From NCBI GenBank assembly GCA_018433085.1, contig JAHDRW010000012.1, positions 20,606 through 84,605 on the forward strand: 64,000 nucleotides of DNA. The letters are read 5' to 3'. A program made the translations under genes and the position numbers. The DNA is from Deltaproteobacteria bacterium (GTDB lineage: Bacteria > Desulfobacterota > Desulfomonilia > UBA1062). Under the pieces are notes generated by a model. That model was not told where the DNA came from, made no database searches, and worked only from the letters and a program-made list of their open reading frames with translations. Below, in pieces: positions 10,257-24,356 of the stretch (positions within the stretch are counted from its first letter, which is position 1; every line of letters starts with the position of its first letter).

Positions 10257-11741
10257 GTGAGCAGATATATCATGGCAATCGACCAGGGCACCACCGGAAC
10301 CCGGATCATGCTGGTGGACCGCACGGGAAAGATCGCCTCCATGGCGTATTCCGAATTCCCCCAGATCTATCCCCGGTCAGGCTGGGTCGAGCACGATCCG
10401 GAGGTGATCTGGAACACGACCGTGAGTATGATGAACCAGGCACTGGAAAAGATATCCGCCACTGCCTCGGATATCGCGGGCATCGGCATCACCAACCAGC
10501 GGGAAACCACGGTGCTGTGGGACCGCAGAACTCTAAAGCCCGCGCACAACGCCATCGTGTGGCAGTGCAGGCGCAGCGCCCCCATCTGTGACGAACTGAA
10601 AAGCAAGGGATACAGCGCCCTCTTCCAGAAGAAGACCGGGCTGATCATCGACGCCTATTTCTCCGGGACCAAGATCAGGTGGCTCCTCGACAATGTCCCG
10701 GGTTTGAGGTCGCGCGCGCTCAAAGGCGAGATTGCGTTCGGCACGATCGACACCTGGCTCATCGCCAAGCTCACCAGGGGAAGGATCCATGCCACGGACT
10801 ATACGAACGCCTCCAGGACCCTGATCTTCAACATCCACGACAAGTGCTGGGACCAGGAGCTTCTCGATCTCCTGGACATCCCGGCCGCCCTCCTGCCCGA
10901 GGTCGTGAATTCGGCGGAAATCGCGGGCACGACCGATCCGTCGATTCTCGGCACCGAGATTCCCATCGCCGGCATCGCGGGAGATCAGCAGGCGGCGCTC
11001 TTCGGCCAGGGCTGCTTCCGGCAGGGCGAGGCGAAGAACACCTATGGAACCGGATGCTTTCTCCTGCTCAATGTCGGAGACAAGGAAATCGAGCCCGGAA
11101 ACGGCCTCATCCTTACGCTTGCCTGTAGCGAAAACGGCAGGCCCTGCTATGCCCTGGAAGGCTCCATCTTTATCGCAGGCGCGGTGGTTCAGTGGCTCAG
11201 AGACGGGCTGTGCCTGATTCAAAACGCGGTCCAGAGCGGCGAGCTCGCCTCGAGCGTGGCAGACACAAACGGCGTGTACATGGTACCCGCCTTTGCCGGC
11301 CTCGGCGCACCGCACTGGGACATGTATGCACGGGGCGCGATCCTGGGCATCACCAGGGGCACCACCCGGGCCCACGTGGTCCGCGCCGCCCTGGAGGGCA
11401 TCGCCTACCAGGTAAAGGATCTGATCAGCGCCTTTGAAGAATCCACGGGCACCCCCTTTACCGAGCTCAAGGTCGACGGCGGCGCGAGCCTGAACGATTT
11501 CCTCATGCAGTTCCAGGCGGATATCGCCGGGTGCCCCATCGACCGCTCGAAGTATGTGGAGTCCACCGGCATGGGCGCCGCCTTTCTCGCGGGCATCGCC
11601 ACCGGCTTCTGGAAGCCGGGAGAGGAGATCAGGAGTTTGAGGATATCGGACAGGCGCTTTGTCCCGGGCATTCCCGGCCAGGAGAGGCAACGACTCTATA
11701 CCGGGTGGCTTGACGCGGTCAGCCGGGTGAAGGTAAAGTGA
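10257..11741 (+). CDS. glpK: Glycerol kinase
   Basis: GTG start with ggaggg RBS. YIMAIDQGTTGTR (FGGY N-terminal motif) and DGGAS C-terminal motif; 494 aa. Confidence 0.9.
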   Translation: MSRYIMAIDQGTTGTRIMLVDRTGKIASMAYSEFPQIYPRSGWVEHDPEVIWNTTVSMMNQALEKISATASDIAGIGITNQRETTVLWDRRTLKPAHNAIVWQCRRSAPICDELKSKGYSALFQKKTGLIIDAYFSGTKIRWLLDNVPGLRSRALKGEIAFGTIDTWLIAKLTRGRIHATDYTNASRTLIFNIHDKCWDQELLDLLDIPAALLPEVVNSAEIAGTTDPSILGTEIPIAGIAGDQQAALFGQGCFRQGEAKNTYGTGCFLLLNVGDKEIEPGNGLILTLACSENGRPCYALEGSIFIAGAVVQWLRDGLCLIQNAVQSGELASSVADTNGVYMVPAFAGLGAPHWDMYARGAILGITRGTTRAHVVRAALEGIAYQVKDLISAFEESTGTPFTELKVDGGASLNDFLMQFQADIAGCPIDRSKYVESTGMGAAFLAGIATGFWKPGEEIRSLRISDRRFVPGIPGQERQRLYTGWLDAVSRVKVK

Positions 11742-11755
11742 TTGGATAAGGGTGC

Positions 11756-12523
11756 ATGACATTCTTCGAATACATCGGGCGCACCGCCATCCGTCTGGTC
11801 GAGGAGATCGGCAGCCTCGCGATCTTCTGCTATGACTTCCTCTTCTGGCTGATCAGGCCCCCGTTCTTTTTCAGCCAGCTCTTCAAGCAGATGGAATTCA
11901 TCGGCGTGCGATCCGTGACCGTGGTCCTGCTCACCGGGGTGTTCACGGGCATGGTGGGTGCGCTCCAGACCCATTACGGGTTCAGCCTCTTCGGGGCGGA
12001 ATCCCTGGTTGGCTCCACCACCGCCCTGGGGCTCCTGCGCGAGCTGGGTCCCGTGCTCGCATCCCTCATGGTCACGGCAAGGGCGGGTTCGGCCATGACG
12101 GCGGAGATCGGCACCATGCGGGTGACCGAACAGATCGACGCGCTGACCGTGATGGGGGTCAATCCGTTCCAGTATCTCGTCAATCCCCGGATCATCGCGG
12201 CGATCATCATGATGCCCATGCTCACCCTGGTCTTCGACGGGATCGGCATCGTGGGCTCGTACCTGGTGGGGGTGAAATTTCTCGATATCGACTCCGGGGT
12301 CTTTATGGCCAGGATCGTGGAGTATGTGGACTACGAGGACCTCTTTACCGGCCTCATCAAGGCGACCTTTTTCGGGGTGATCCTCTCGGTGGTGGGCTGC
12401 TACAAGGGCTTCACCACCACCGGAGGGGCGGAGGGGGTCGGGAAAGCCACCACCAGTTCGGTGGTCATCTCGTCGGTGAGCATTCTGGTCGCCGACTATT
12501 TCCTGACCGCTGTCATGTACTGA
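11756..12523 (+). CDS. mlaE: MlaE/Ttg2B-family ABC transporter permease (phospholipid transport)
   Basis: 255 aa with about 5 TM segments. LGPVLASLMVTARAGSAMTAEIGTMRVTEQIDAL is the MlaE/YrbE conserved core. Confidence 0.75.
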   Translation: MTFFEYIGRTAIRLVEEIGSLAIFCYDFLFWLIRPPFFFSQLFKQMEFIGVRSVTVVLLTGVFTGMVGALQTHYGFSLFGAESLVGSTTALGLLRELGPVLASLMVTARAGSAMTAEIGTMRVTEQIDALTVMGVNPFQYLVNPRIIAAIIMMPMLTLVFDGIGIVGSYLVGVKFLDIDSGVFMARIVEYVDYEDLFTGLIKATFFGVILSVVGCYKGFTTTGGAEGVGKATTSSVVISSVSILVADYFLTAVMY

Positions 12524-12640: not shown

Positions 12641-13120
12641 TCAGGAAGCGGCCCGGGAGGCTGTCTTTGCTGCCGGCTTTGTCTTCTTCGGTGTTTCTTG
12701 CTGAACCGGGACGACCATGGTGACAGCCCCGACCGGGCACTCTGCCTCGCAGAAGCCGCAGCCGATGCATGCCTTTTCCTCTTTCAGATAGGGATACCCG
12801 TGAAGGTCCTTGGGGCCTTTCGCCTCGGACAGATCGAGGCAGTGCACGGGGCAGGCATCGATGCACATGGAGCACGACATGCACAAATCGCCGGCAAAGG
12901 CCGGCCTTTTCCACTGGGAGCGTTTGACCATGACGCAAACATGGCCGAACTGGTCCTTTACTGCAGCACTCGGGCATACCCTGCCGCACGCGCCGCACTC
13001 GATGCAGAGATCCCCGTCGATCTTGTGGACGTCCTTCTTCTTTCCGGTGATGGCCCGGGCAGGGCATATCCTTACGCACGCCCCGCAGCCTGTGCAGGTC
13101 TCGATTATGGTATACGACAT
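12641..13120 (-). CDS. Poly-ferredoxin with four [4Fe-4S] cluster motifs; electron-transfer partner of the adjacent AOR
   Basis: Four CxxCxxCxxxCP motifs (CTGCGACVRICP, CIECGACGRVCP, CMSCSMCIDACP, CIGCGFCEAECP). Start at MSYTII with ggaggg RBS, 11 bp downstream of the AOR stop. Confidence 0.8.
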   Translation of the reverse strand: MSYTIIETCTGCGACVRICPARAITGKKKDVHKIDGDLCIECGACGRVCPSAAVKDQFGHVCVMVKRSQWKRPAFAGDLCMSCSMCIDACPVHCLDLSEAKGPKDLHGYPYLKEEKACIGCGFCEAECPVGAVTMVVPVQQETPKKTKPAAKTASRAAS

Positions 13121-13131
13121 CGCTTTCCCTC

Positions 13132-15078
13132 CTATTCCCCAGATAGCCCCAGCCTGGCCAGTGTCTCGCCGGTGGGCGCGCCGGTAGACGGATCCCACCC
13201 GAACTGACTCCAGTAGTCCGCCATCATCTTCTCGATGGGGACCGTCCGGCCCTTGTTGGCGCCTTGCGGCTGGGGAGGTATGCCCAATGCACGGTCGCTC
13301 AGCCTGTTCGCCCGAGGATCGATGCCGTGCCTGATATTGAACGCCTGTTTGAGGGTCTGGATCCTCATCCCGATCTCCATGTACTCTTCAGGGGTCTTGT
13401 TCCAGCCCGTGGCTGCATTGAGCCAGTCAAAGGTGGGGGTCCTCTTGATGCCGAGGAAGGTGCCGAACATGCACAGTCCCGCCCCGTTGACCACGTTCAT
13501 GTATTTGCTGCAGGCCGCGGTCTCCAGGGCGTGATTTTCCGTGGCCCGGTACTTGGAATTCTTGTGATAGATCTGAAACGGCAGTTTCTTCGGGAGGCCC
13601 CTGACCCTTTTCCAGAGCTGGAACATCTCGTAATAGAGCTGGGCCCCGATCGTATGCCTGCCCGGCGTGGGTTCTACACTATAGTGTACGGCGAACCCCG
13701 GGTCCTGCCTGCCGTCGTGCATGGCCGGCTCCTGGCCCCCTGCGTGCACGGTGTACTTCTCGGACCCGCGGCCGATCTTCTCTGCGGCGGCCCGTGAACC
13801 GTCCGCCAGAATATCGCCGATGCCTTCCCGGTCGATCATCTTGTGGATCAATGCGACCATGGCGCTCGCGTTACCCCAGCCCAGGTCAAGCCCGTCGGTA
13901 TCGTCAAGGGTGAGAATCCCCTGTTCGAAGCACTCCATGGCCCAGGCCACGGTGGCCCCCGCGGAGATGGTGTCCATGCCTGCCCGGTTGAGAAGCTCGT
14001 TGAGGTAGAACAGGCTGTCCGTGTCCTCGTTCATGCACAGGCCGCCCAGTGCCAGCACGGACTCGTACTCGGGCTTGTGGGTCTCGGAATATTTTCCGGT
14101 CATCGAGCACTTGCCGCCGCACCCGAGCGGGCACGAGTAGCAGTGATACTTGACGTACTCCGATTTCTTGACGAGATCCGGGTCTGCCGACTTCGATTTC
14201 TTCAGCGGCCAGTCGACGCTGCTGCCCTTCCAGTTCTTGACCGGAGAATCCCCCCATTCGGGCGACATCTGGTTCATGCCCCCGGTCCCCCACTGCCGGA
14301 GAATCATCTTGTAGACCATGCCGTCCATGGCCATGGCCGTGGGGAGAATCCTCAGGAGCGCCCCTATCAGGGCCGTGCCGATGCTCGGGCCGAGCGGAGG
14401 CTGGAACTGCACCCACTTGTTGCACGTCCTGCTGAGCTTATGGACGGTTTTCCGGTCATAGGGGACGATTCGCTTTTTCCCGTCGAGAACGAGGGCCTTG
14501 AGCCTTTTCGATCCCATGACCGCACCGAGACCGGACCGCGCGGCGATGCGCCCCTTGTCGTTACAGATGCCCGAGATGAGGGAAAGCCGCTCGCCCGCGG
14601 GGCCGATGACCGCGATCCTGGCACCCGGACCGTGCTGATCCTGGAGCATTTCCTCGGTCTCGATGGCGTCCTTGCCCCAGAGGTGCGAGGCGTCCCTGAG
14701 TTGAGGCTTCCGATCCCCGATATACAGATAAACCGGCGTTTCGCTCATTCCGGTAAAGAAGATGCCGTCGTAACCGCAGCGTTTGATGGCCGGGGAGAAC
14801 GAGCCGCCGCAGTTGGCATCGCCCCAGGTGCCGGTGAGCGGCGACTTGCCGGCGACCATCCACCTCCCGGAAAACAGGCTTCCCGTGCCGGTGAGCAGCC
14901 CGGAGACAAAACCGAGGATATTCTCGGGCCCCAGCGGGTCGGCCTCCCGTGGTATCCTGTCATACAGGAGGTACGCCGCAAGGCCGATTCCCGAGAGATA
15001 TTTCTCATAGACCTCGTCAGGAATTGTCTCTTCCCGGAATTCTCCTTTTGAAAGGTCGACTATCAATACCTTGCCCAT
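13132..15078 (-). CDS. Tungsten-type aldehyde:ferredoxin oxidoreductase family protein (AOR/BamB-like), about 650 aa
   Basis: N-terminal MGKVLIVDLSKG...YLGG/SGIGLAAYLL...GPENILGF..GLLTGT...SPLTG is the AOR N-domain signature. Internal CxxC/ExxH pterin/FeS-binding regions. Its length matches the BamB/GAPOR-size members of the family. Confidence 0.85.
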   Translation of the reverse strand: MGKVLIVDLSKGEFREETIPDEVYEKYLSGIGLAAYLLYDRIPREADPLGPENILGFVSGLLTGTGSLFSGRWMVAGKSPLTGTWGDANCGGSFSPAIKRCGYDGIFFTGMSETPVYLYIGDRKPQLRDASHLWGKDAIETEEMLQDQHGPGARIAVIGPAGERLSLISGICNDKGRIAARSGLGAVMGSKRLKALVLDGKKRIVPYDRKTVHKLSRTCNKWVQFQPPLGPSIGTALIGALLRILPTAMAMDGMVYKMILRQWGTGGMNQMSPEWGDSPVKNWKGSSVDWPLKKSKSADPDLVKKSEYVKYHCYSCPLGCGGKCSMTGKYSETHKPEYESVLALGGLCMNEDTDSLFYLNELLNRAGMDTISAGATVAWAMECFEQGILTLDDTDGLDLGWGNASAMVALIHKMIDREGIGDILADGSRAAAEKIGRGSEKYTVHAGGQEPAMHDGRQDPGFAVHYSVEPTPGRHTIGAQLYYEMFQLWKRVRGLPKKLPFQIYHKNSKYRATENHALETAACSKYMNVVNGAGLCMFGTFLGIKRTPTFDWLNAATGWNKTPEEYMEIGMRIQTLKQAFNIRHGIDPRANRLSDRALGIPPQPQGANKGRTVPIEKMMADYWSQFGWDPSTGAPTGETLARLGLSGE

Positions 15079-15389
15079 GTAACCTCTGTTCATACCCCCT
15101 CCTTCTCTTCTTCATGAAAAAATAGAGAGTAAGAGCTCTCCCTGAGGTTGTCTCTCTTCAGTCACGGCAAACTGCTTCTCGAAGTATTTTGCGGCTCCGG
15201 CACCGGGCTTACAGAGACTATCCTAAAAATTGCCGCAATAGACGAGAAAAACAGCTGCCGCACTCTCCGCTCCAGGCCCGGCTCAGGCATCCGGAATCGA
15301 ATACAACCGGGCGGCCTGCCCTCAACAACCCCCTGCGGCTTTTCCCGAATTTCACTCACCCCTTGACTTCAGGGTTTGACATATTTAAT

Positions 15390-15435: not shown

Positions 15436-16131
15436 ATGCCAAAGGTACGGCGGAGTCAAGAAGACAGAGACATCATCCGGGAGAAAATCCTCGACGAGGC
15501 GCTGGGCCTCATCTCCGAACACGGCTTTGCCGCCTTCAGCATGAGAAAGCTCGCATCCCGCCTGGGGATGACCGCCACCACGATCTATCATTACTACGCG
15601 AGCAAGGACGAGCTCTACCTCATGATCCTCACCAAGGGATTCGACATGCTCTATCAGCGCCTTGCAGAGATCTACGAGACAAAGGGCGACCCGGCCGGCA
15701 AAATCCGGGACATGGTGGGCGCCTATATCGATTTCGGCATCCGCAAGGCGAATTACTATAACATCATGTTTACCTCGGACGCCCCCAAGTATCGTGATTA
15801 CATCGGCACCGAGATCGAGCCCGTTGCCTTCTTCGAGAAGCAGACCGCATTGAAACTCGCGGACATCACCTCTCAGGCCCTTCAAGACCTGAACCGGGGC
15901 GTGAGGCGTTTCACGCCGGAAGAAATCCGGTATTTCGTCATCCGGCTCTGGAGCACCCTCCACGGAATCATCGCCCTGTACAACAGCAGGGTTCTCCAGG
16001 AGGTGGATGAGAACGCGGCAGCGGTTATCGAACAGGTGGCGCAGGACCTGGTGAACCAGGTCCTTTCCCGGATGGGCGCATCCCCTCCCGATGTTCGCAT
16101 CCCGGCCAGGCAGGGCGGCACCCGGCGATGA
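15436..16131 (+). CDS. TetR/AcrR-family transcriptional regulator
   Basis: N-terminal HTH ILDEALGLISEHGFAAFSMRKLASRLGMTATTIYHYYASKDEL is the TetR_N signature. 231 aa with a helical C-terminal ligand-binding domain. Confidence 0.85.
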   Translation: MPKVRRSQEDRDIIREKILDEALGLISEHGFAAFSMRKLASRLGMTATTIYHYYASKDELYLMILTKGFDMLYQRLAEIYETKGDPAGKIRDMVGAYIDFGIRKANYYNIMFTSDAPKYRDYIGTEIEPVAFFEKQTALKLADITSQALQDLNRGVRRFTPEEIRYFVIRLWSTLHGIIALYNSRVLQEVDENAAAVIEQVAQDLVNQVLSRMGASPPDVRIPARQGGTRR

Positions 16132-16180
16132 ACCGGTGAATAATCAGGCTTCTTTCGCCTGAGAATCATAGGGGGACGAT

Positions 16181-19141
16181 ATGTTTCAGCGGAATTTGGC
16201 GGATGCCATCACCCACGTGGCGTTACAGACCATGGCGTTTCATTTCAATTATCTCCCGAATTTCAGAAAATACCTTCGCTCGGACGATGGCTGGATCAAC
16301 TTCTCGCTCGGCATGCGAACCGAGCAGGGGAACGTGCGGCAGTGCATATCCTTCCGCGACGGCAGGGTGCGGGTGAGCTCGGATATCCCCGGGGATGTGG
16401 ATACCGAGATGGTGTTCTCCGATAACGGCATCCTGAAGGACATGGCCTCTCTGCCTCCGAACGAGGTGCTCAACCTCGTTCTCAAGAACAGGCTGATCGT
16501 CCGGGGCAACCTCGTGTTCGCCCAGCTCTTCAGCTTCTTCATCACCCTGTTCGTCAAGGGAAAGATCATCAACATGATGAAGAAACAGGCCCGGCAATGT
16601 CCGGGAGATTCCTGCTCCCACAACGCGCAGCCCGTTACCGCCCGTGCGCCCAGGATCAGACCGCAGCTCACGGCGCCCTCGCGCGATCCGGGTGTGGTTT
16701 ATCTCGACGATCCCTACCTCTCCGGCTATTCTCTTGCCGATTTCCCCAGGCTGAAGAAGTTCCTCGATATCCACTTCACTCAAAAGCCCGTCATCTGCCA
16801 CGAGCGGCCCCTGCTTCTCACCCAATGGTTCAGAAAAAACGGCTTCGAAAGGCGTCCGGACGGGAGCCCCTGGGTTCCCGAGCTCAGGCAGGGCCACGCG
16901 TTCAAGCATCTCATGGAGCACCGCAAGCCCATCATCAGGAAAGACGACCTCATCGCGGGGACGACCACCGCGCAGGAAATCGGGGTCGTGCTCTATCCGG
17001 ACTCCCACGGAACCATGATCTGGGGCGAGCTCTTCACGACTCCCTTCAGGCAACTCTTCCCCTACGACATAGGCGACGATACCAGGGAGATCCTGCACCA
17101 CTCGGTCTTTCCCTTCTGGGTTCACCGGAACTTCAAGGAGTGGGTGAGGGAAAAGTACGGCAATCCCTTAAGCCAGAGCCTCGACGACCGGTTCGCGGTG
17201 TACTTCCTCTGGAAGACCGCGGCCCTGTCCCACACCGTGATCGACTACCCCAGGCTGCTCAAGCTCGGCGCACGGGGGATCATCGAGGAAATCCGGCGGG
17301 AGCTCAGGGAAGACACCGGTGCAGATCAGACCAAGAAGGATACGCTTCAGGCCATGATCTTCTGCTATGAGGGCATCATCGCCTATGCCCGCAATCTCTC
17401 GGCACAGGCCGCGCGCGAGGCCCGTGTCGAATCGGATGAGCGGCGGCAGGCGGAGCTCGAGCGCCTCGCCGAGATCTGCGCCCGGGTGCCCGAGCACCCC
17501 AGCACCACCCTGGAGGAGGCCCTGAACGCCATCTGGATCCACTGGGTGGGCGTGCACATGGAAAACACCAATGCCGGGTTCTCCCTGGGCAGGATGGACC
17601 AGTGGCTCCAGCCATTCTTTACTGCAGACCTGAAAAAGATCCGCGGCAGGAAAAAGCGCCAGGAATACATCAAACGCGCCGTCGAGCTCGTGGGATGTTT
17701 CTATATGCGTTGCACCGACCACCTCCCGCTGATTCCGGACATCGGCAACTACCTGTTCGGCGGGAGCTCCTCCGATCAGGCCATCACCCTGGGAGGCGTC
17801 ACCCCTGAAGGCAAGGACGCGGTCAACGACATGACCTATATCTTTCTGAAGATCACCGAGATGCTCGGGATCCGGGATCCCAACGTCAATGCCCGCTACC
17901 ACGGGGGAATCAACAGCGAGTCCTATCTGCGCCGGCTGTGTGAGGTCAATGTCAACACCACCTCCACCCCCTCCATCCACAACGACGGGATGGTCATGGC
18001 CTCGCTCCGGGAGTTCGACTATCCGCCCGAGCACCTGAGAGACTGGGCCGCGACAGGCTGCGTGGAGCCGACCCTGTCCGGAAGGCACATCGGCCACACC
18101 AACTGCATGATGTTCAACATGGTGGCCGCCCTGGAGATGGCCATGTACAACGGCCGCCACCCCCTGATGCGATGGGACGTGGGCCCCCGGACCGGCCGCG
18201 CGGACAACGGCTCGTTTCCAACCTTCGATGACTTCTTCCAGGCCTTCTGCACCCAGCTCGACTTCCTCATGGACAACTCCTGCGAATACAACCGACTGCT
18301 GGGAGAGGCCCACAGCGTGCTGCGTCCCACACCCTTTATCTCGGGCCTCATCGAAGGGTGTGTCGTCAAGGGCAGAGACGCCACCAAGGGAGGGGCCCTC
18401 TACAACTCCTCGGGCACGGCCTGCATCGGGCTTGCGGATATCACGGATTCACTCATGGCCATCAAGAAACTCGTGTACGACGAGCAGAAAGCGACGCTTC
18501 AGGAGATGCGCGAGGCCATGGAGTCCAATTTCGCCCAAAACAGCCGCCTCCATGCCCTGGTGCTCAACAAGGTTCCACTCTTCGGCTCCGGAAGCCCGGA
18601 AGCCGTGGACATGGCCAACCGGGTGATTCGGTTCATCCACGACCGCTTCGGCGCACACACGAACTTCCGGGGCGGCAGGTATACCGCCGGGTTCTGGTCC
18701 ATGTCCAACCACGTTGCCTTCGGAACCCTCACCGGGGCCCTGCCCTCTGGCAGGCTTGCCGGCAAGCCCTTCACCCCCGGCCTCACGCCCGAGGCGCATG
18801 CGTCGAAGAGCCTGCTGGACAATATCCGCGATGTCTCCCGGCTCGAGCCCGGGAACATGAACAACAACATCGCCTTCAACGTCAAGGTGGTGCCGTCGGC
18901 CAAGGAGAGTCATCAGGAGGCGGTGGACCATGTCTATTCATATGCCAGGGCCTACTGTGACCTGGGCGGCATGCAGATGCAGTTCAACGTGGTCTCGTCC
19001 GCCACCCTCAGGGATGCCATGGCCCACCCCGAGAACTACCGCGATCTCATGGTGCGCATATCGGGGTACAACGCCTACTTTGTGACCTTGAACAGGGACA
19101 TGCAGACGGAGCTCATCGAGCGCGCGGAATACGGCCTCTGA
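16181..19141 (+). CDS. Glycyl radical enzyme (PFL-like family) with an N-terminal SCP2-like extension; substrate unknown
   Basis: C-terminal glycyl-radical motif MVRISGYNAYFVTLNRDMQTELIERAEY and catalytic loop TGCVEPT (Cys-x-Glu). Residues 1-125 resemble an SCP2 sterol-carrier fold (DTEMVFSDNGILKDMASLPPNEVLNLVLKNRLIVRGNLVFAQLF). 986 aa in total; strong agggggacgat RBS at 16181. Confidence 0.85.
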   Translation: MFQRNLADAITHVALQTMAFHFNYLPNFRKYLRSDDGWINFSLGMRTEQGNVRQCISFRDGRVRVSSDIPGDVDTEMVFSDNGILKDMASLPPNEVLNLVLKNRLIVRGNLVFAQLFSFFITLFVKGKIINMMKKQARQCPGDSCSHNAQPVTARAPRIRPQLTAPSRDPGVVYLDDPYLSGYSLADFPRLKKFLDIHFTQKPVICHERPLLLTQWFRKNGFERRPDGSPWVPELRQGHAFKHLMEHRKPIIRKDDLIAGTTTAQEIGVVLYPDSHGTMIWGELFTTPFRQLFPYDIGDDTREILHHSVFPFWVHRNFKEWVREKYGNPLSQSLDDRFAVYFLWKTAALSHTVIDYPRLLKLGARGIIEEIRRELREDTGADQTKKDTLQAMIFCYEGIIAYARNLSAQAAREARVESDERRQAELERLAEICARVPEHPSTTLEEALNAIWIHWVGVHMENTNAGFSLGRMDQWLQPFFTADLKKIRGRKKRQEYIKRAVELVGCFYMRCTDHLPLIPDIGNYLFGGSSSDQAITLGGVTPEGKDAVNDMTYIFLKITEMLGIRDPNVNARYHGGINSESYLRRLCEVNVNTTSTPSIHNDGMVMASLREFDYPPEHLRDWAATGCVEPTLSGRHIGHTNCMMFNMVAALEMAMYNGRHPLMRWDVGPRTGRADNGSFPTFDDFFQAFCTQLDFLMDNSCEYNRLLGEAHSVLRPTPFISGLIEGCVVKGRDATKGGALYNSSGTACIGLADITDSLMAIKKLVYDEQKATLQEMREAMESNFAQNSRLHALVLNKVPLFGSGSPEAVDMANRVIRFIHDRFGAHTNFRGGRYTAGFWSMSNHVAFGTLTGALPSGRLAGKPFTPGLTPEAHASKSLLDNIRDVSRLEPGNMNNNIAFNVKVVPSAKESHQEAVDHVYSYARAYCDLGGMQMQFNVVSSATLRDAMAHPENYRDLMVRISGYNAYFVTLNRDMQTELIERAEYGL

Positions 19142-19158: not shown

Positions 19159-20088
19159 ATGTACAACACGAGCCAAACAGCGGAAAACGACAAGGCCCTC
19201 ATTCTCGAGGTCAAGGGCAACTCGCTTGACGATGGCCCGGGAATCCGGACCGTGGTTTTCTTCAAGGGCTGCCCGTTGAACTGCCTGTGGTGCCACAACC
19301 CGGAGAGCAAAAAGGCGCTCCCCGAGATCTCCTTCGACCCGGAGAAGTGTGTGGGATGCGACTCGTGCATTGACGTCTGCCCCGAGGGCGCTTTGGACAG
19401 GGCCAACCCCCTGTTTGTGGACAGAACCCGTTGCACGCTGTGCATGGAGTGTACACGGGTGTGCCCGGGCACGGCCCTTTCCCCGGTGGGCAGATATCTG
19501 GGCGTCGACGAGGTCGTGAGAGAGATCGAGAAGGATCTGCCCTTTTTCCAGGCATCAGCCGGCGGGGTCACACTCTCCGGGGGAGAGCCGACCCTGTTCA
19601 TGGGCTTTGCCTCGCGGCTCCTGGCCAGGCTAAAGAAAAAGAGGATTCACACCCTGCTGGAGACCTGCGGGTTCTTCGACTACGCTAGATTCATGGAGCT
19701 TCTCTATCCCCATCTCGATGCGATCTATTACGACCTCAAGCTCTTCGACCCCGGTGAGCACAAACGCTTCTGCGGGGTCTCCAGCGAGACGATCCTGAAG
19801 AACTTTACGGAGCTGAGCGCGGCGTGCGCCCGGGACAACAGGGAGATCCTCCCCAGAATACCGCTGGTTCCCGGGGTTACCGCCACCCGGGAGAACCTTG
19901 GCTCAATCGCCCGTTTCCTGAAAGACCTGAATGTCATGAGAGTCGCACTACTCCCGTACAATCCCCTGTGGTTGTCCAAGCTCCCCATGCTCGGGCAGAC
20001 CCGGCGGACCGACCTCTCCGGAGAATGGATGGCAGGCGGAGAGATCGAGGAATGCAGAAGGATATTCTCGGACTTTTATATCGTCTGA
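19159..20088 (+). CDS. Glycyl radical enzyme activating enzyme (radical SAM), with a ferredoxin-like insert
   Basis: CPLNCLWCHNPES (the CxxxCxxC radical-SAM motif) plus two extra Cys clusters (CVGCDSCIDVCP, CTLCMECTRVCP), as in CutD/DhaB2/HpdA-type activases. GGEP SAM motif. 18 bp downstream of the GRE gene. Confidence 0.85.
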   Translation: MYNTSQTAENDKALILEVKGNSLDDGPGIRTVVFFKGCPLNCLWCHNPESKKALPEISFDPEKCVGCDSCIDVCPEGALDRANPLFVDRTRCTLCMECTRVCPGTALSPVGRYLGVDEVVREIEKDLPFFQASAGGVTLSGGEPTLFMGFASRLLARLKKKRIHTLLETCGFFDYARFMELLYPHLDAIYYDLKLFDPGEHKRFCGVSSETILKNFTELSAACARDNREILPRIPLVPGVTATRENLGSIARFLKDLNVMRVALLPYNPLWLSKLPMLGQTRRTDLSGEWMAGGEIEECRRIFSDFYIV

Positions 20089-20348: not shown

Positions 20349-20375
20349 GCCAGGCCGTCTTTCAGGCCGCCTGGA
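20349..20375 (-). terminator. Hairpin plus T-run overlapping the stop codon of the EEP gene
   Basis: Read on the minus strand: CCAGGCGGCC-tgaaaga-CGGCCTGGC followed by TTTTTTAT. Confidence 0.45.
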
Positions 20376-21186
20376 TCTTGCGGCCCGCTGATACTCCCGG
20401 CAGCAGGACCTCTGTCGGCAGGATAACCTCCATGGTGATCGGGAGATGGTCGGAAAGGGCGTAGTTGAGCACCTCGGCCGGACCCGTGGTGATGGTGGGC
20501 GATACCAGGATGTGATCGAGATGTTTTTTCGGGTTCCAGCTCGGGTAGGTGAACAGGTCGGAATACGGCATACGGAGGTTCGTCTCGTGGAGAAACCGGG
20601 ACAGCTCCCTGCTGTCGGGACTGCAGTTCAGGTCGCCCATGAGTATCACGTGCTTGTAGCCCCTGATCAGCCCGCTCAGATATTCCATCTGGAAACCCCG
20701 GGCCTTTCTGCTCAGAGACAGGTGCGCGAGGACAAGCACCAGGGGATTTTCCCGGTTCCCGAAACTGACCACCAGCGCGCCCCTGCCAGGCAGCCGGGCG
20801 GGAAGGTCGTGGCGGCTGATGCCGGTGGGGGCATATCTGCTGAGCAGACCCATGCTGTGCCGGGCCACCTTCCAGAGCTTTCGGTTTGTCTTGTCGCACC
20901 AGTGGGGAAACAACGCCTCCCTTGCCAGGTACTCGGCGTAATTGATGAAACCGCTCCTGAGCGACCCACTGTCGAGCTCTTGGAGGCCCACCATATCAAA
21001 GCCCCTGATCATCCGGGCGATGCGGTGGAGATTTCTGAGTCTCTGGCTACAGGGCAGAAGATGCTTCCACCCGTGAAACACGTAATCGCGGAAACCGGCA
21101 GCCGCTATGCCTACCTGGATATTGTAGCTGAGCAGACGGAGTCTGGAACCTGCGGTAATATCATGAAACGGCACAACTGCATGCAT
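20362..21186 (-). CDS. Endonuclease/exonuclease/phosphatase (EEP) family protein
   Basis: LLSYNIQVG (N-terminal Asn/Glu catalytic region), GDLN and SDHLPI C-terminal motifs, as in Exo-endo-phos (PF03372). Confidence 0.7.
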   Translation of the reverse strand: MHAVVPFHDITAGSRLRLLSYNIQVGIAAAGFRDYVFHGWKHLLPCSQRLRNLHRIARMIRGFDMVGLQELDSGSLRSGFINYAEYLAREALFPHWCDKTNRKLWKVARHSMGLLSRYAPTGISRHDLPARLPGRGALVVSFGNRENPLVLVLAHLSLSRKARGFQMEYLSGLIRGYKHVILMGDLNCSPDSRELSRFLHETNLRMPYSDLFTYPSWNPKKHLDHILVSPTITTGPAEVLNYALSDHLPITMEVILPTEVLLPGVSAGRKIQAA

Positions 21187-21958: not shown

Positions 21959-22715
21959 CTCATCACCCCTTTCCTCTCCAAAGAGATCTCGTGTTTCCAT
22001 TCCCTGGTTCAATGCTCATTTCATAGGGTCACGGTTCCCTGTTTCCAAGAAGAGCCCGAAAGGAGACCTGTTCTTTCCCTGTTCCCGAAATCCGGTTCGC
22101 CGGGTGATCGATTTGGTCCATGATGGCAGATCTTTCATCGTGTCAAGAATCCGGAACGCTCACCGAACAGGGCATCTTCGGGACACTTCCTGCCTTCCTA
22201 TCCACGCCCCCACGTCTGTGCCATGGATCCTGGATCCCGGGGCAGTACGCTCAGCCTGTTCCCCCGACATCACGATCGGGTCTGGGCAGCTTCTTGCCGC
22301 CTGGATATGCGTTTCCATCCCCTGATTCACACCGGTCCCGGTGCTTGTAACGGCTCGGCCTCTGGAAATTTGCTATGATAATTATTATAGCAATTACCGG
22401 TAATTATAAGCCGTAAATTCTGGTAAATTTTCCGGCAACTGTCATTACTGGTTCTTACACATTAATATTGACAGCCTGATCAAAATTATGTATCTGTTAG
22501 GGTTGATTGACATGACTGTCAAATTATAAGATGTAGAATTCTTGTGGTGCAACACGGAGAGTATTGGTATTCTATTGAAACCTTCTTCTAAGTCCGCTTC
22601 GGAGGACTTTGAAGGCGGGGTCACATTCCCCGCCGCTTGCGGCGTAAGAGGGTCCAGGGCTTGCCCTGGGATTCATACCATTGACGGCACGAAAAGGACA
22701 AAAGGAGAGTTCTCG

Positions 22716-24356
22716 ATGGAAGAGTTTCGCGAGATAACGATGGGAGAGCTCATCAGAGAGACAGCCTCCCGGTATCCCGACCGTGAGGCACTGATATTCC
22801 CGGCGGCATCGTTGAGGCTTACCTATTCGGAGTTCGAGCAGAAATGCAGGGAAACAGCCAAGGGTTTCATGGCCTTGGGGGTCAAGAAGGGGGATCATGT
22901 CTCGGTATGGGCCACCAATATCCCCCAGTGGGTATATCTGCAGTTCGGCCTGGGCATGATCGGCGCCGTACTGGTGACAGTGAACACGAACTACAAGTCG
23001 AGCGAGTTGAATTATATTCTCAATCAGTCGGACTCCACGACTCTGGTCCTCATCGAGGAGTACCGTGACACGAACTACCGTGACATGCTCAGCGTGGTGG
23101 TCCCCGGGCTGAACTCCATGGAGGCCGGCAAGATACGGTCAGACAGTCTCCCGCTCTTGAAAAACATCGTCTATATCGGCGGCAGGAGCGAGACGCCAGG
23201 CATGTTCTCCTTCGATCAGGTCATGGGCCTGGGCAGGAAAATCTCCGATGCCGAGCTTGCTGAGAGGGAGGAATCCATCGACTTCCATGATGTGGTGAAC
23301 ATGCAGTATACCTCAGGCACCACCGGTTTCCCCAAGGGGGTCATGCTCACCCACTATAACGTGATCAACAATGCACGGATGGTCGGAGACGTGATGGGAA
23401 TGACGGAGAAAGACCGTCTTCTTATCCAGGTTCCCCTGTTCCACTGCTTCGGCTGCGTGATGAGCTCGCTCAACTGCGTCGTGCACGGGTCGACCATGGT
23501 CATGATGGAATATTTCGACGCGATCAAGGCCCTGAAATATATCCAGGACGAAAAATGCACGGCTATCAACGGCGTGCCTACGATGTTCATCTCGATCCTG
23601 AGCCACGAGGACTTTTCAGAGTACGATATGTCGTCTCTCAGGACAGGCATCATGGCCGGCGCCCCCTGCCCCGAGGAAACCATGAGACAGGTGATGGAAA
23701 GGATGCACTGCCCGGAGGTGGTCATCGCCTTCGGCCAGACCGAGAGCTCTCCGGTCATGAACATGACGCGCAGGGACGACCCTGTGGATGTCCGGGTAAC
23801 CACGGTGGGAAGGCTGCTCCCGGGTATCCTGGGAAAGATCGTGGACCCCGCCACCGGCGAAGAGCTGCCGCCGAACGTTCAGGGCGAAATCGTGACCAAG
23901 AGTCCCTGTGTCATGAAAGGCTACTACAAGATGCCCGATGACACGGAAAAGGCCATCGATGCGGACGGCTGGCTCCACACCGGCGATCTGGGAATCGTTG
24001 ACGAACAGGGAAACTTCAAGATCACCGGCAGAATCAAGGAAATGATTATCCGGGGCGGCGAGAATATCTATCCGCGGGAAATCGAAGAGTACCTTCACAA
24101 GCACTCCAAGATACGGGACGTCTATGTGGTGGGCGTGCCTGACAAGAAGTATGGAGAGCAGGTCCTGGCCGTGGTCATCCCCGAGCCGGGCGAGAAGATC
24201 ACCGAAGAAGAGCTCGTTGAATACTGCACCAACCGGATCGCCCGGCACAAGATACCCAGATACTGGCAGTTCACCGACGAGGTGCCCATGACGGCAAGCG
24301 GCAAGGTCCAGAAATACAAGATCGTGGAACAGTATTCGCTGAGGCTCACCGGGTAA
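22716..24356 (+). CDS. AMP-forming acyl-CoA synthetase (fatty-acid/medium-chain CoA ligase family)
   Basis: YTSGTTGFPKGV (AMP-binding motif), GEIVTKSPCVMKGYY and GDLG...RxKExIIRGGENIYPREIE C-terminal motifs. aaaggagag RBS at 22705. Confidence 0.85.
   Translation: MEEFREITMGELIRETASRYPDREALIFPAASLRLTYSEFEQKCRETAKGFMALGVKKGDHVSVWATNIPQWVYLQFGLGMIGAVLVTVNTNYKSSELNYILNQSDSTTLVLIEEYRDTNYRDMLSVVVPGLNSMEAGKIRSDSLPLLKNIVYIGGRSETPGMFSFDQVMGLGRKISDAELAEREESIDFHDVVNMQYTSGTTGFPKGVMLTHYNVINNARMVGDVMGMTEKDRLLIQVPLFHCFGCVMSSLNCVVHGSTMVMMEYFDAIKALKYIQDEKCTAINGVPTMFISILSHEDFSEYDMSSLRTGIMAGAPCPEETMRQVMERMHCPEVVIAFGQTESSPVMNMTRRDDPVDVRVTTVGRLLPGILGKIVDPATGEELPPNVQGEIVTKSPCVMKGYYKMPDDTEKAIDADGWLHTGDLGIVDEQGNFKITGRIKEMIIRGGENIYPREIEEYLHKHSKIRDVYVVGVPDKKYGEQVLAVVIPEPGEKITEEELVEYCTNRIARHKIPRYWQFTDEVPMTASGKVQKYKIVEQYSLRLTG

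Follow-up and report, generated by a model that had tools for sequence, protein, structure and literature searches.

Among glycyl radical enzymes (GREs), hydrophobic molecules are the province of the fumarate-adding X-succinate synthases and of some decarboxylases. SCP2 domains, for their part, serve hydrophobic substrates both when fused to enzymes (SCPx thiolase, MFE-2 and the alkylsulfatases SdsA1 and Pisa1) and as the carriers UbiJ and UbiT. The characterised 1,2-eliminase and isomerase GREs, which retain a Cys-x-Glu (CXE) motif, all act on small, water-soluble molecules—glycerol, propanediol, choline, hydroxyproline, isethionate, sulfopropanediol and anhydro-sugar phosphates (2026 GRE review). 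Small accessory proteins are also encoded in the operons of GREs for hydrophobic substrates, as exemplified by the β and γ subunits of benzylsuccinate synthase (BSS) and the β subunit of methylalkylsuccinate synthase (MASS), and are proposed to act as gatekeepers of the substrate channel (2026 GRE review).

Here we describe a GRE gene in a 64,000-nt stretch of DNA from a deltaproteobacterium (the whole stretch is referred to as the window). The gene, an open reading frame (ORF) at 16181-19141 on the forward strand, encodes a 986-aa protein in which an SCP2-fold domain precedes the GRE core. The closest solved cores are those of A. fulgidus PFL2 (2f3o), Roseburia propanediol dehydratase (5i2a) and C. 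butyricum glycerol dehydratase (GDH; 1r8w). The two dehydratases, against which the core scores about 365-378 bits, share with it a PFL-like barrel, a Gly-radical domain, the GCVEP motif, an acid histidine and a dedicated activase; unlike the window protein, neither has an N-terminal domain. PFL2, the best-scoring solved relative (379 bits) and ‘a GRE of unknown function’ (2026 GRE review), is a 776-aa protein without an SCP2 domain, the alignment of which starts at residue 225 of the window protein. No solved GRE in the PDB covers window residues 1-170.

An earlier note, made from the letters of this DNA alone, knew of no SCP2-GRE fusion among described GREs, and our searches agree. No relevant paper joining GREs with SCP2, sterol carriers or ether lipids came up in the literature search, which covered 8 million papers; the 2026 GRE review mentions no such domain or fusion and, like the PDB, holds no SCP2-like GRE subunit; and an SCP2-GRE pairing is absent from the PDB, from NCBIfam and from the Pfam annotations precomputed for all homologues. 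The components are of known kinds—what is new is that they are combined, that the SCP2 module also occurs as a split small subunit, and that the pocket is distinct and invariant.

The N-terminal domain and its fusion to the GRE

The gene is laid out as follows, in window coordinates:

16170-16176, forward strand: Shine-Dalgarno sequence AGGGGGA, read directly, 4 nt before the ATG at 16181
16181-16585, forward strand: N-terminal SCP2-fold domain (aa 1-135), with helices, five strands and a C-terminal helix from residue 111
16586-16684, forward strand: variable linker (aa 136-168), disordered in the AlphaFold2 (AF2) model
16685-19141, forward strand: GRE core (aa 169-986 plus stop), with PFL-like (aa 199-848) and Gly_radical (aa 864-968) domains

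The similarity of the N-terminus to SCP2, proposed in the earlier note, was borne out by profile and fold searches, although from the window sequence alone the call is a mere hint. Pfam PF02036 (SCP2) aligns with residues 53-118 at E 0.12 and 13.1 bits, below the gathering threshold of 21.3; NCBIfam returned no match for the N-terminus, and neither did phmmer with the single domain against the PDB, where SCP2 proteins were reached only with a family profile. For that profile we aligned 47 non-redundant N-domains (alignment A2). Pfam SCP2 matched 24 of them at E up to 1 (best 2.3e-5), no other Pfam family recurred across the 47, and the top three PDB matches of the A2 profile were rabbit and human SCP2, in register. 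An AF2 model built from A2 (mean predicted local distance difference test score (pLDDT) of 83; predicted template modelling score (pTM) of 0.75) places its elements in the SCP2 order: helices 2-24 and 26-32, four strands, helices 82-90 and 93-101, a fifth strand and a helix from residue 111. The predicted structure has the SCP2 α/β fold, with a five-stranded sheet packed on the N-terminal helices and closed by the C-terminal helix. When this model was compared with the PDB using Foldseek, ranks 1-41 were exclusively SCP2-fold proteins—UbiJ-SCP2 (6h6n; E 1e-7), AF1534, the SCP-2L domain of MFE-2 (1ikt), the SCP2 domains of SdsA1 and Pisa1 (2cfu and 2yhe) and classical SCP2 (1c44 and 2c0l)—and a second, independent fold-comparison method agreed. 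The structural alignments span 111-125 residues at 9-19 % sequence identity. The AF2 model of the whole protein (pTM 0.89) gives the N-domain a pLDDT of 93-95 and linker residues 140-159 one below 50. The fold is securely assigned, and formally the window sequence lies outside the Pfam family. Compared with the described fusions of SCP2 domains to enzymes, the domain here is N-terminal, it is attached through a disordered linker, and its partner is a GRE, which is not among the described partners.

The earlier note had further read domain and enzyme as one in-frame product behind a strong ribosome-binding site. The ORF is indeed unbroken, with 0 internal stops and no frameshift, and the AGGGGGA ahead of its ATG has AGGGGG or AGGAGG at the equivalent place in 10 related loci, in which the ATG is likewise conserved. 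The same note had the GRE body begin at MMKKQ; these residues are in fact the end of the SCP2 C-terminal helix, and the GRE runs from about residue 169. A candidate internal start at Met131/132, which would give an isoform lacking the SCP2 domain, has no good Shine-Dalgarno sequence, with AAGGGA lying about 12 nt upstream. Measured against ten relatives, the ratio of non-synonymous to synonymous substitution rates (dN/dS) is 0.11-0.27 for the N-domain, 0.07-0.13 for the GRE core and 0.19-1.0 for the linker region (aa 136-175, median identity 29 %); on these ratios, the N-domain is under purifying selection.

The architecture is widespread. A scan of one genome per species across 185,579 species gave 356 genomes with a relative, the best 80 of which were examined as loci. 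Orthologues retain the fusion in 79 of these 80, aligning from residue 1-26 through 986 with the N-domain kept; in the remaining locus (L068) the end of the contig cuts the alignment at residue 107. A search with the GRE core returned more than 120 protein clusters at 69-96 % identity, nearly all of 985-995 aa, from Desulfomonilia, other Deltaproteobacteria, Smithella, Bacillota, Actinomycetota, Chloroflexi and Spirochaetes. The N-terminal domain is common to all of them and shows the motifs DGW[IL][ND]F, PPNE and GN[LM]xY; the splitting of the ORF by a sequencing error or stop, which the earlier note had considered, finds no support. This large family appeared only with the core as query, a word-indexed search with residues 1-190 having returned only 7 fragments. 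The fusion is thus genuine and is conserved in hundreds of species, and the SCP2-GRE gene is predicted to encode a single polypeptide.

The nearest genomes, with GREs of 91-93 % identity, are metagenome-assembled genomes of Deltaproteobacteria/Desulfomonilia, including ‘Deltaproteobacteria bacterium Phox-21’. Two gut contigs with an SCP2-GRE, L086 and L087, are labelled Escherichia coli and Collinsella aerofaciens, respectively; L086 has gene clusters in common with the gut-clade contig L077, and L087 with L085, and the species labels may be binning errors.

Catalytic residues and pocket of the GRE core

The core matches the Pfam families PF02901 (PFL-like; E 6.7e-166) and PF01228 (Gly_radical; E 1.4e-23), and opens with the conserved entry motif DPGVVYLDDPYLSGYSL. 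Key residues were mapped on GDH (1r8w), with invariance scored over 117 homologues of the window protein:

17231-17233, forward strand: His351, equivalent to the general acid His164 of GDH
18059-18067, forward strand: Cys627 and Glu629 of the Cys-x-Glu loop (GCVEP), equivalent to C433 and E435 of 1r8w, both kept
19064-19066, forward strand: radical Gly962 in the RISGY motif, the radical glycine of 1r8w being kept
H281 of 1r8w: replaced by A465, invariant
S282 of 1r8w: replaced by G466, invariant
Y339 of 1r8w: replaced by D532, invariant
W445, H446 and D447 of 1r8w: replaced by H639, T640 and N641, invariant
Y640 of 1r8w: replaced by W839, invariant
S642 of 1r8w: replaced by M841, invariant

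The 15 key positions other than F467 and C642 are invariant, C627, E629, H351 and G962 among them. With its PFL-like barrel, Gly-radical domain, cysteine loop and activase, the protein is a member of the GRE superfamily, and its core keeps the acid/base machinery of the 1,2-eliminase (dehydratase or lyase) type. It would have a specificity of its own, because the residues that hold glycerol or propanediol in 1r8w and 5i2a (H281, S282, Y339, D447, Y640 and S642) are exchanged for a different invariant set (A, G, D, N, W and M). The pocket differs from that of 2f3o as well, which keeps the aspartate equivalent to D447 of GDH where the SCP2-GRE has an asparagine.

Existing classes do not accommodate the enzyme. 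No NCBIfam equivalog or subfamily cut-off was reached by the GRE, and the PFL2-3 model TIGR01774 scored 488.7 bits against a cut-off of 678.2. A glycerol or 1,2-propanediol dehydratase orthologue was rejected: of H164, S282, Y339, D447 and Y640, only H164 is kept. Membership of the X-succinate synthases or alkane-activating enzymes, to which the Smithella hosts and the kinship with A. fulgidus PFL2 might have pointed, was rejected as well, because X-succinate synthases lack the glutamate of the Cys-x-Glu motif, which the SCP2-GRE has, and because the similarity is weak (210 bits to MasD and 180 bits to TutD, versus 365-379 for the dehydratases and their kin).

In the full-length AF2 model, pLDDT falls below 50 at residues 519-531 (nt 17735-17773), a loop just before the invariant Asp532, and at residues 954-971 (nt 19040-19093), the glycyl-radical loop. 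Both loops are highly conserved and may, going by the model, be mobile elements.

The free-standing partner and the genomic neighbourhood

A search of 1.84 billion representative proteins with the A2 profile gave 326 matches, which form three groups: divergent full-length fusions, with cores 39-57 % identical and differing pocket residues; fragments and chimeras; and complete proteins of 141-180 aa. The last group aligns with the fused N-domain over 120 columns (HHalign probability 99.2 %, E 6e-20) and belongs to a free-standing SCP2-like family of at least 312 clusters, all of them unnamed or ‘hypothetical’ and without a Pfam domain. In all six contigs examined, the free-standing gene directly follows a GRE gene, and in five of the six a GRE-activase gene lies downstream of it—directly in four, and after one small gene in L093; in the remaining contig, L089, the sequence stops just past the SCP2-like gene. 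The GRE and SCP2-like genes of L092 overlap at the stop codon of the GRE. The GRE of this contig (856 aa), the sole full-length split GRE examined, is 39 % identical to the window protein and its residue 2 aligns to window residue 171, so that its start coincides with the end of the fused linker. The distant GRE clade with a separate SCP2-like gene thus supplies the alternative that the earlier note had asked about; in these related bacteria the SCP2 module is probably a small subunit in its own right, with its gene directly behind that of the GRE and before that of the activase. This split/fused relation, of the Rosetta-stone kind, shows that the module is a dedicated partner of the GRE clade and not an accidental fusion. 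Its position resembles that of the BSS and MASS small subunits, the folds of which are unrelated to SCP2.

Among the divergent full-length fusions, P0187 has Cys627, Glu629 and the radical Gly962 all replaced by alanine, and P0203 has the cysteine replaced by aspartate and the glutamate by glycine; judging from these substitutions, both may be inactive pseudo-enzyme paralogues. A MqnP/UbiA-like polyprenyltransferase gene lies near the split-form operon of L092 (2900-3757, reverse strand; 378 bits against a cut-off of 387), and a gene for a Peptidase_U32 protein with weak similarity to UbiU/TrhP lies near that of L093 (7114-8148, forward strand)—a faint hint that the split clade could handle prenylated quinone-type molecules.

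The main neighbours of the SCP2-GRE in the window are:

12641-13198, reverse strand: polyferredoxin (ferredoxin families), divergent from the GRE
13132-15093, reverse strand: tungsten/molybdenum-type aldehyde:ferredoxin oxidoreductase (AOR; Pfam AFOR_N and AFOR_C), divergent from the GRE
15436-16131, forward strand: TetR-family regulator (Pfam TetR_N and TetR_C_33), 49 bp upstream of the GRE
19159-20088, forward strand: radical-SAM GRE-activating enzyme (TIGR02494, 275.6 bits against a cut-off of 174)
22542-24356, forward strand: fatty-acid CoA ligase family gene (NCBIfam NF009233, 735 bits against a cut-off of 832)

Across the 80 loci, the broadly conserved neighbours are the TetR regulator and the activase only. 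A TetR homologue lies upstream on the same strand in 50 (at a median of 26 bp), and the activase follows immediately downstream in 54. The nearest NCBIfam models of the regulator are the lipid-sensing FasR, KstR and FadR, all below cut-off. The fatty-acid CoA ligase is found downstream in 18 loci, an association that is loose and lineage-restricted, and an MMPL/sterol-sensing transporter and α/β-hydrolases occur near the GRE in other loci.

Carbonyl oxidoreductases accompany the GRE in a lineage-specific manner. The AOR is kept beside it in 14 loci (the window, 12 others of Desulfomonilia type and the Tepidimicrobium locus L053); an extended short-chain dehydrogenase/reductase (SDR) and a classical SDR adjoin it in Smithella/Desulfobacterales loci (13 and 17 loci, respectively) and are fused into a single 632-aa protein in six further loci; and an aldo/keto reductase (AKR) fused to a 4Fe-4S domain does so in Mogibacterium/Anaerovoracaceae loci. 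The extended SDR is nearest to HpnA, OleD and SdmB, all below cut-off. Because three unrelated carbonyl oxidoreductases adjoin the GRE in three lineages, an aldehyde or ketone product is implied; this convergence is the best available evidence for such a product, for which the AOR is a candidate sink in the case of an aldehyde.

Neither of two further gene sets was seen. No BMC-domain (bacterial microcompartment) genes occur among the called neighbours in five phyla or, for ORFs of at least 90 aa, among the conserved clusters of the 80 loci; a microcompartment-targeting peptide was rejected on this count, and the extension is a folded 135-aa SCP2 domain. Likewise, a UbiJ/UbiT-type quinone carrier was rejected, with no Ubi genes in the annotated part of the window (~7.4-28.6 kb) or among the conserved neighbours of the 80 loci; the prenyltransferase and U32 matches near the split-form operons of L092 and L093 are the sole pointers in that direction.

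Several other arrangements were observed. A glycerol kinase gene, glpK (above NCBIfam cut-offs), and, 15 bp downstream of it, a lone gene for an MlaE-type phospholipid-transporter permease occupy 10257-12523 on the forward strand; this synteny is retained in about 12 related Desulfomonilia loci and could reflect shared ancestry or a glycerolipid link. An endonuclease/exonuclease/phosphatase-family gene (20362-21186, reverse strand), convergent to the activase and without a specific NCBIfam match, is kept in the loci of 9 close relatives; sphingomyelinase- and phospholipase-C-like enzymes belong to the same family. A second GRE, short (790-838 aa) and lacking an SCP2 domain, adjoins the SCP2-GRE in Chloroflexi, a spirochaete and Anaerovoracaceae/Mogibacterium (L004, 11007-14579; L007, 10008-11905; L080 and L084, downstream of the SCP2-GRE), and has its own activase wherever the contig reaches far enough.

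Proposed function and rival explanations

We propose, with a probability of roughly 60 %, that the polypeptide has three working parts: an SCP2 carrier, a flexible linker of ~33 residues and a GRE of the 1,2-eliminase type that acts on an amphiphilic or lipid-like substrate. The proposal builds on what the data presented here show: the domain has the SCP2 fold, its fusion to the GRE is real and conserved, a split form exists, and the core keeps its catalytic residues and has a distinct, invariant pocket. The known roles of SCPx, MFE-2, the alkylsulfatases and UbiJ suggest, by analogy, that the most likely ligand of the SCP2 domain is the hydrophobic tail of the substrate, and delivery of a hydrophobic substrate would be consistent with the lipid-flavoured neighbours. 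On its flexible tether, the domain would hold this tail, draw the substrate out of a membrane or micelle and feed its polar, hydroxylated head into the radical site, which is buried. The subsequent steps would follow the accepted mechanism of GRE eliminases (2026 GRE review). The radical-SAM activase encoded downstream would install a radical on Gly962, from which it would pass to Cys627; the Cys627 thiyl would abstract a hydrogen atom from the hydroxyl-bearing carbon of the head group, Glu629 would act as the base that deprotonates that hydroxyl, and His351, as the acid, would protonate the vicinal O-linked leaving group and promote its loss. Elimination would yield an aldehyde or ketone, to be oxidised by the AOR here and reduced by SDR or AKR enzymes elsewhere. 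Tentatively, and with the odds somewhat against so specific a claim, a widespread GRE clade may have an SCP2 carrier of its own, either fused or in the form of a small subunit, for radical 1,2-elimination on a head group of the membrane-lipid type. Possible substrates would, speculatively, include 1-O-alkylglycerols and other ether lipids, long-chain 1,2-diols, and sphingoid or hopanoid polyols.

Several points weigh against the proposal. That the SCP2 domain binds a ligand, that the substrate is lipid-like and that the product is a carbonyl are all things that we infer; the window sequence itself is under the Pfam SCP2 threshold (13.1 versus 21.3 bits); and the SCP2 fold also occurs in purely structural roles, e.g., in Eis-type acetyltransferases, which appear lower in the structural match lists. 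The lipid-related neighbours make a weak argument, their matches all falling below curated cut-offs and being lineage-restricted, and shared ancestry inflates their counts, only the TetR regulator and the activase being broadly conserved.

In the main alternative, the SCP2-fold module would handle no lipid and have a structural or regulatory role—gating the substrate channel, stabilising the Gly-radical domain, docking the activase or mediating oligomerisation—like the β and γ small subunits of BSS and MASS. The placement of the split-form gene, after the GRE and before the activase, is typical of accessory subunits, and small subunits that regulate hydrocarbon entry are described for other GREs (2026 GRE review); the structural role of Eis-family domains among the matches points the same way, and the rise of the N-domain pLDDT from ~90 to ~94 in the full-length model would be compatible with a fixed, docked position. 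We nevertheless judge this alternative unlikely, since known GRE small subunits are not SCP2-fold proteins, the best structural matches are all lipid-binding SCP2 proteins, the neighbours lean to lipid metabolism, and a disordered, fast-evolving tether of ~33 residues is less what a rigid gate would need than what a mobile capture domain would. Structural and cargo roles are, moreover, not mutually exclusive. Considerably less probable is a membrane-targeting device that parks the enzyme on the membrane surface without carrying single molecules. The long hydrophobic or amphipathic helices at residues 2-24 and 111-134, with the hydrophobic C-terminal helix LVFAQLFSFFITLFV, would fit such a device, as would the MMPL transporter and MlaE genes nearby in some loci; yet in the model and the structural alignments both helices are integral to the SCP2 fold, no hydrophobic segment of transmembrane length lies outside it, and the free-standing homologues are small and soluble-looking. 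An artefact—a mis-called start, a sequencing error, an assembly join or a chance resemblance to SCP2—might have explained the weak single-sequence Pfam match (E 0.12) and the fragments returned by the first N-terminus search, but it is already refuted and keeps a negligible probability: the 985-995-aa architecture recurs in independent clusters, loci from many phyla align from the N-terminus, the N-domain dN/dS is low (0.11-0.27), the ribosome-binding site and ATG are conserved, and two fold-comparison methods concur.

The proposal of an SCP2 carrier serving a 1,2-eliminase-type GRE has consequences for how these proteins are named and understood. In public databases, the enzyme is called ‘formate C-acetyltransferase’ or ‘pyruvate formate lyase family protein’, and the split partner ‘hypothetical protein’; the name ‘formate C-acetyltransferase’ is a mislabel, for which the finding gives a concrete annotation fix. 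The SCP2 module represents a new kind of accessory subunit for the GRE superfamily, and its conservation, as a fusion in hundreds of species and in split form in hundreds more clusters, points to an eliminase for amphiphilic or lipid substrates. For syntrophs (Smithella), sulfate reducers and rumen Clostridia, this would be a possible way into the anaerobic catabolism of lipids or ethers. If the clade does act on lipids, it would provide for oxygen-independent cleavage of lipid head groups or ethers in sediments, digesters and the rumen.

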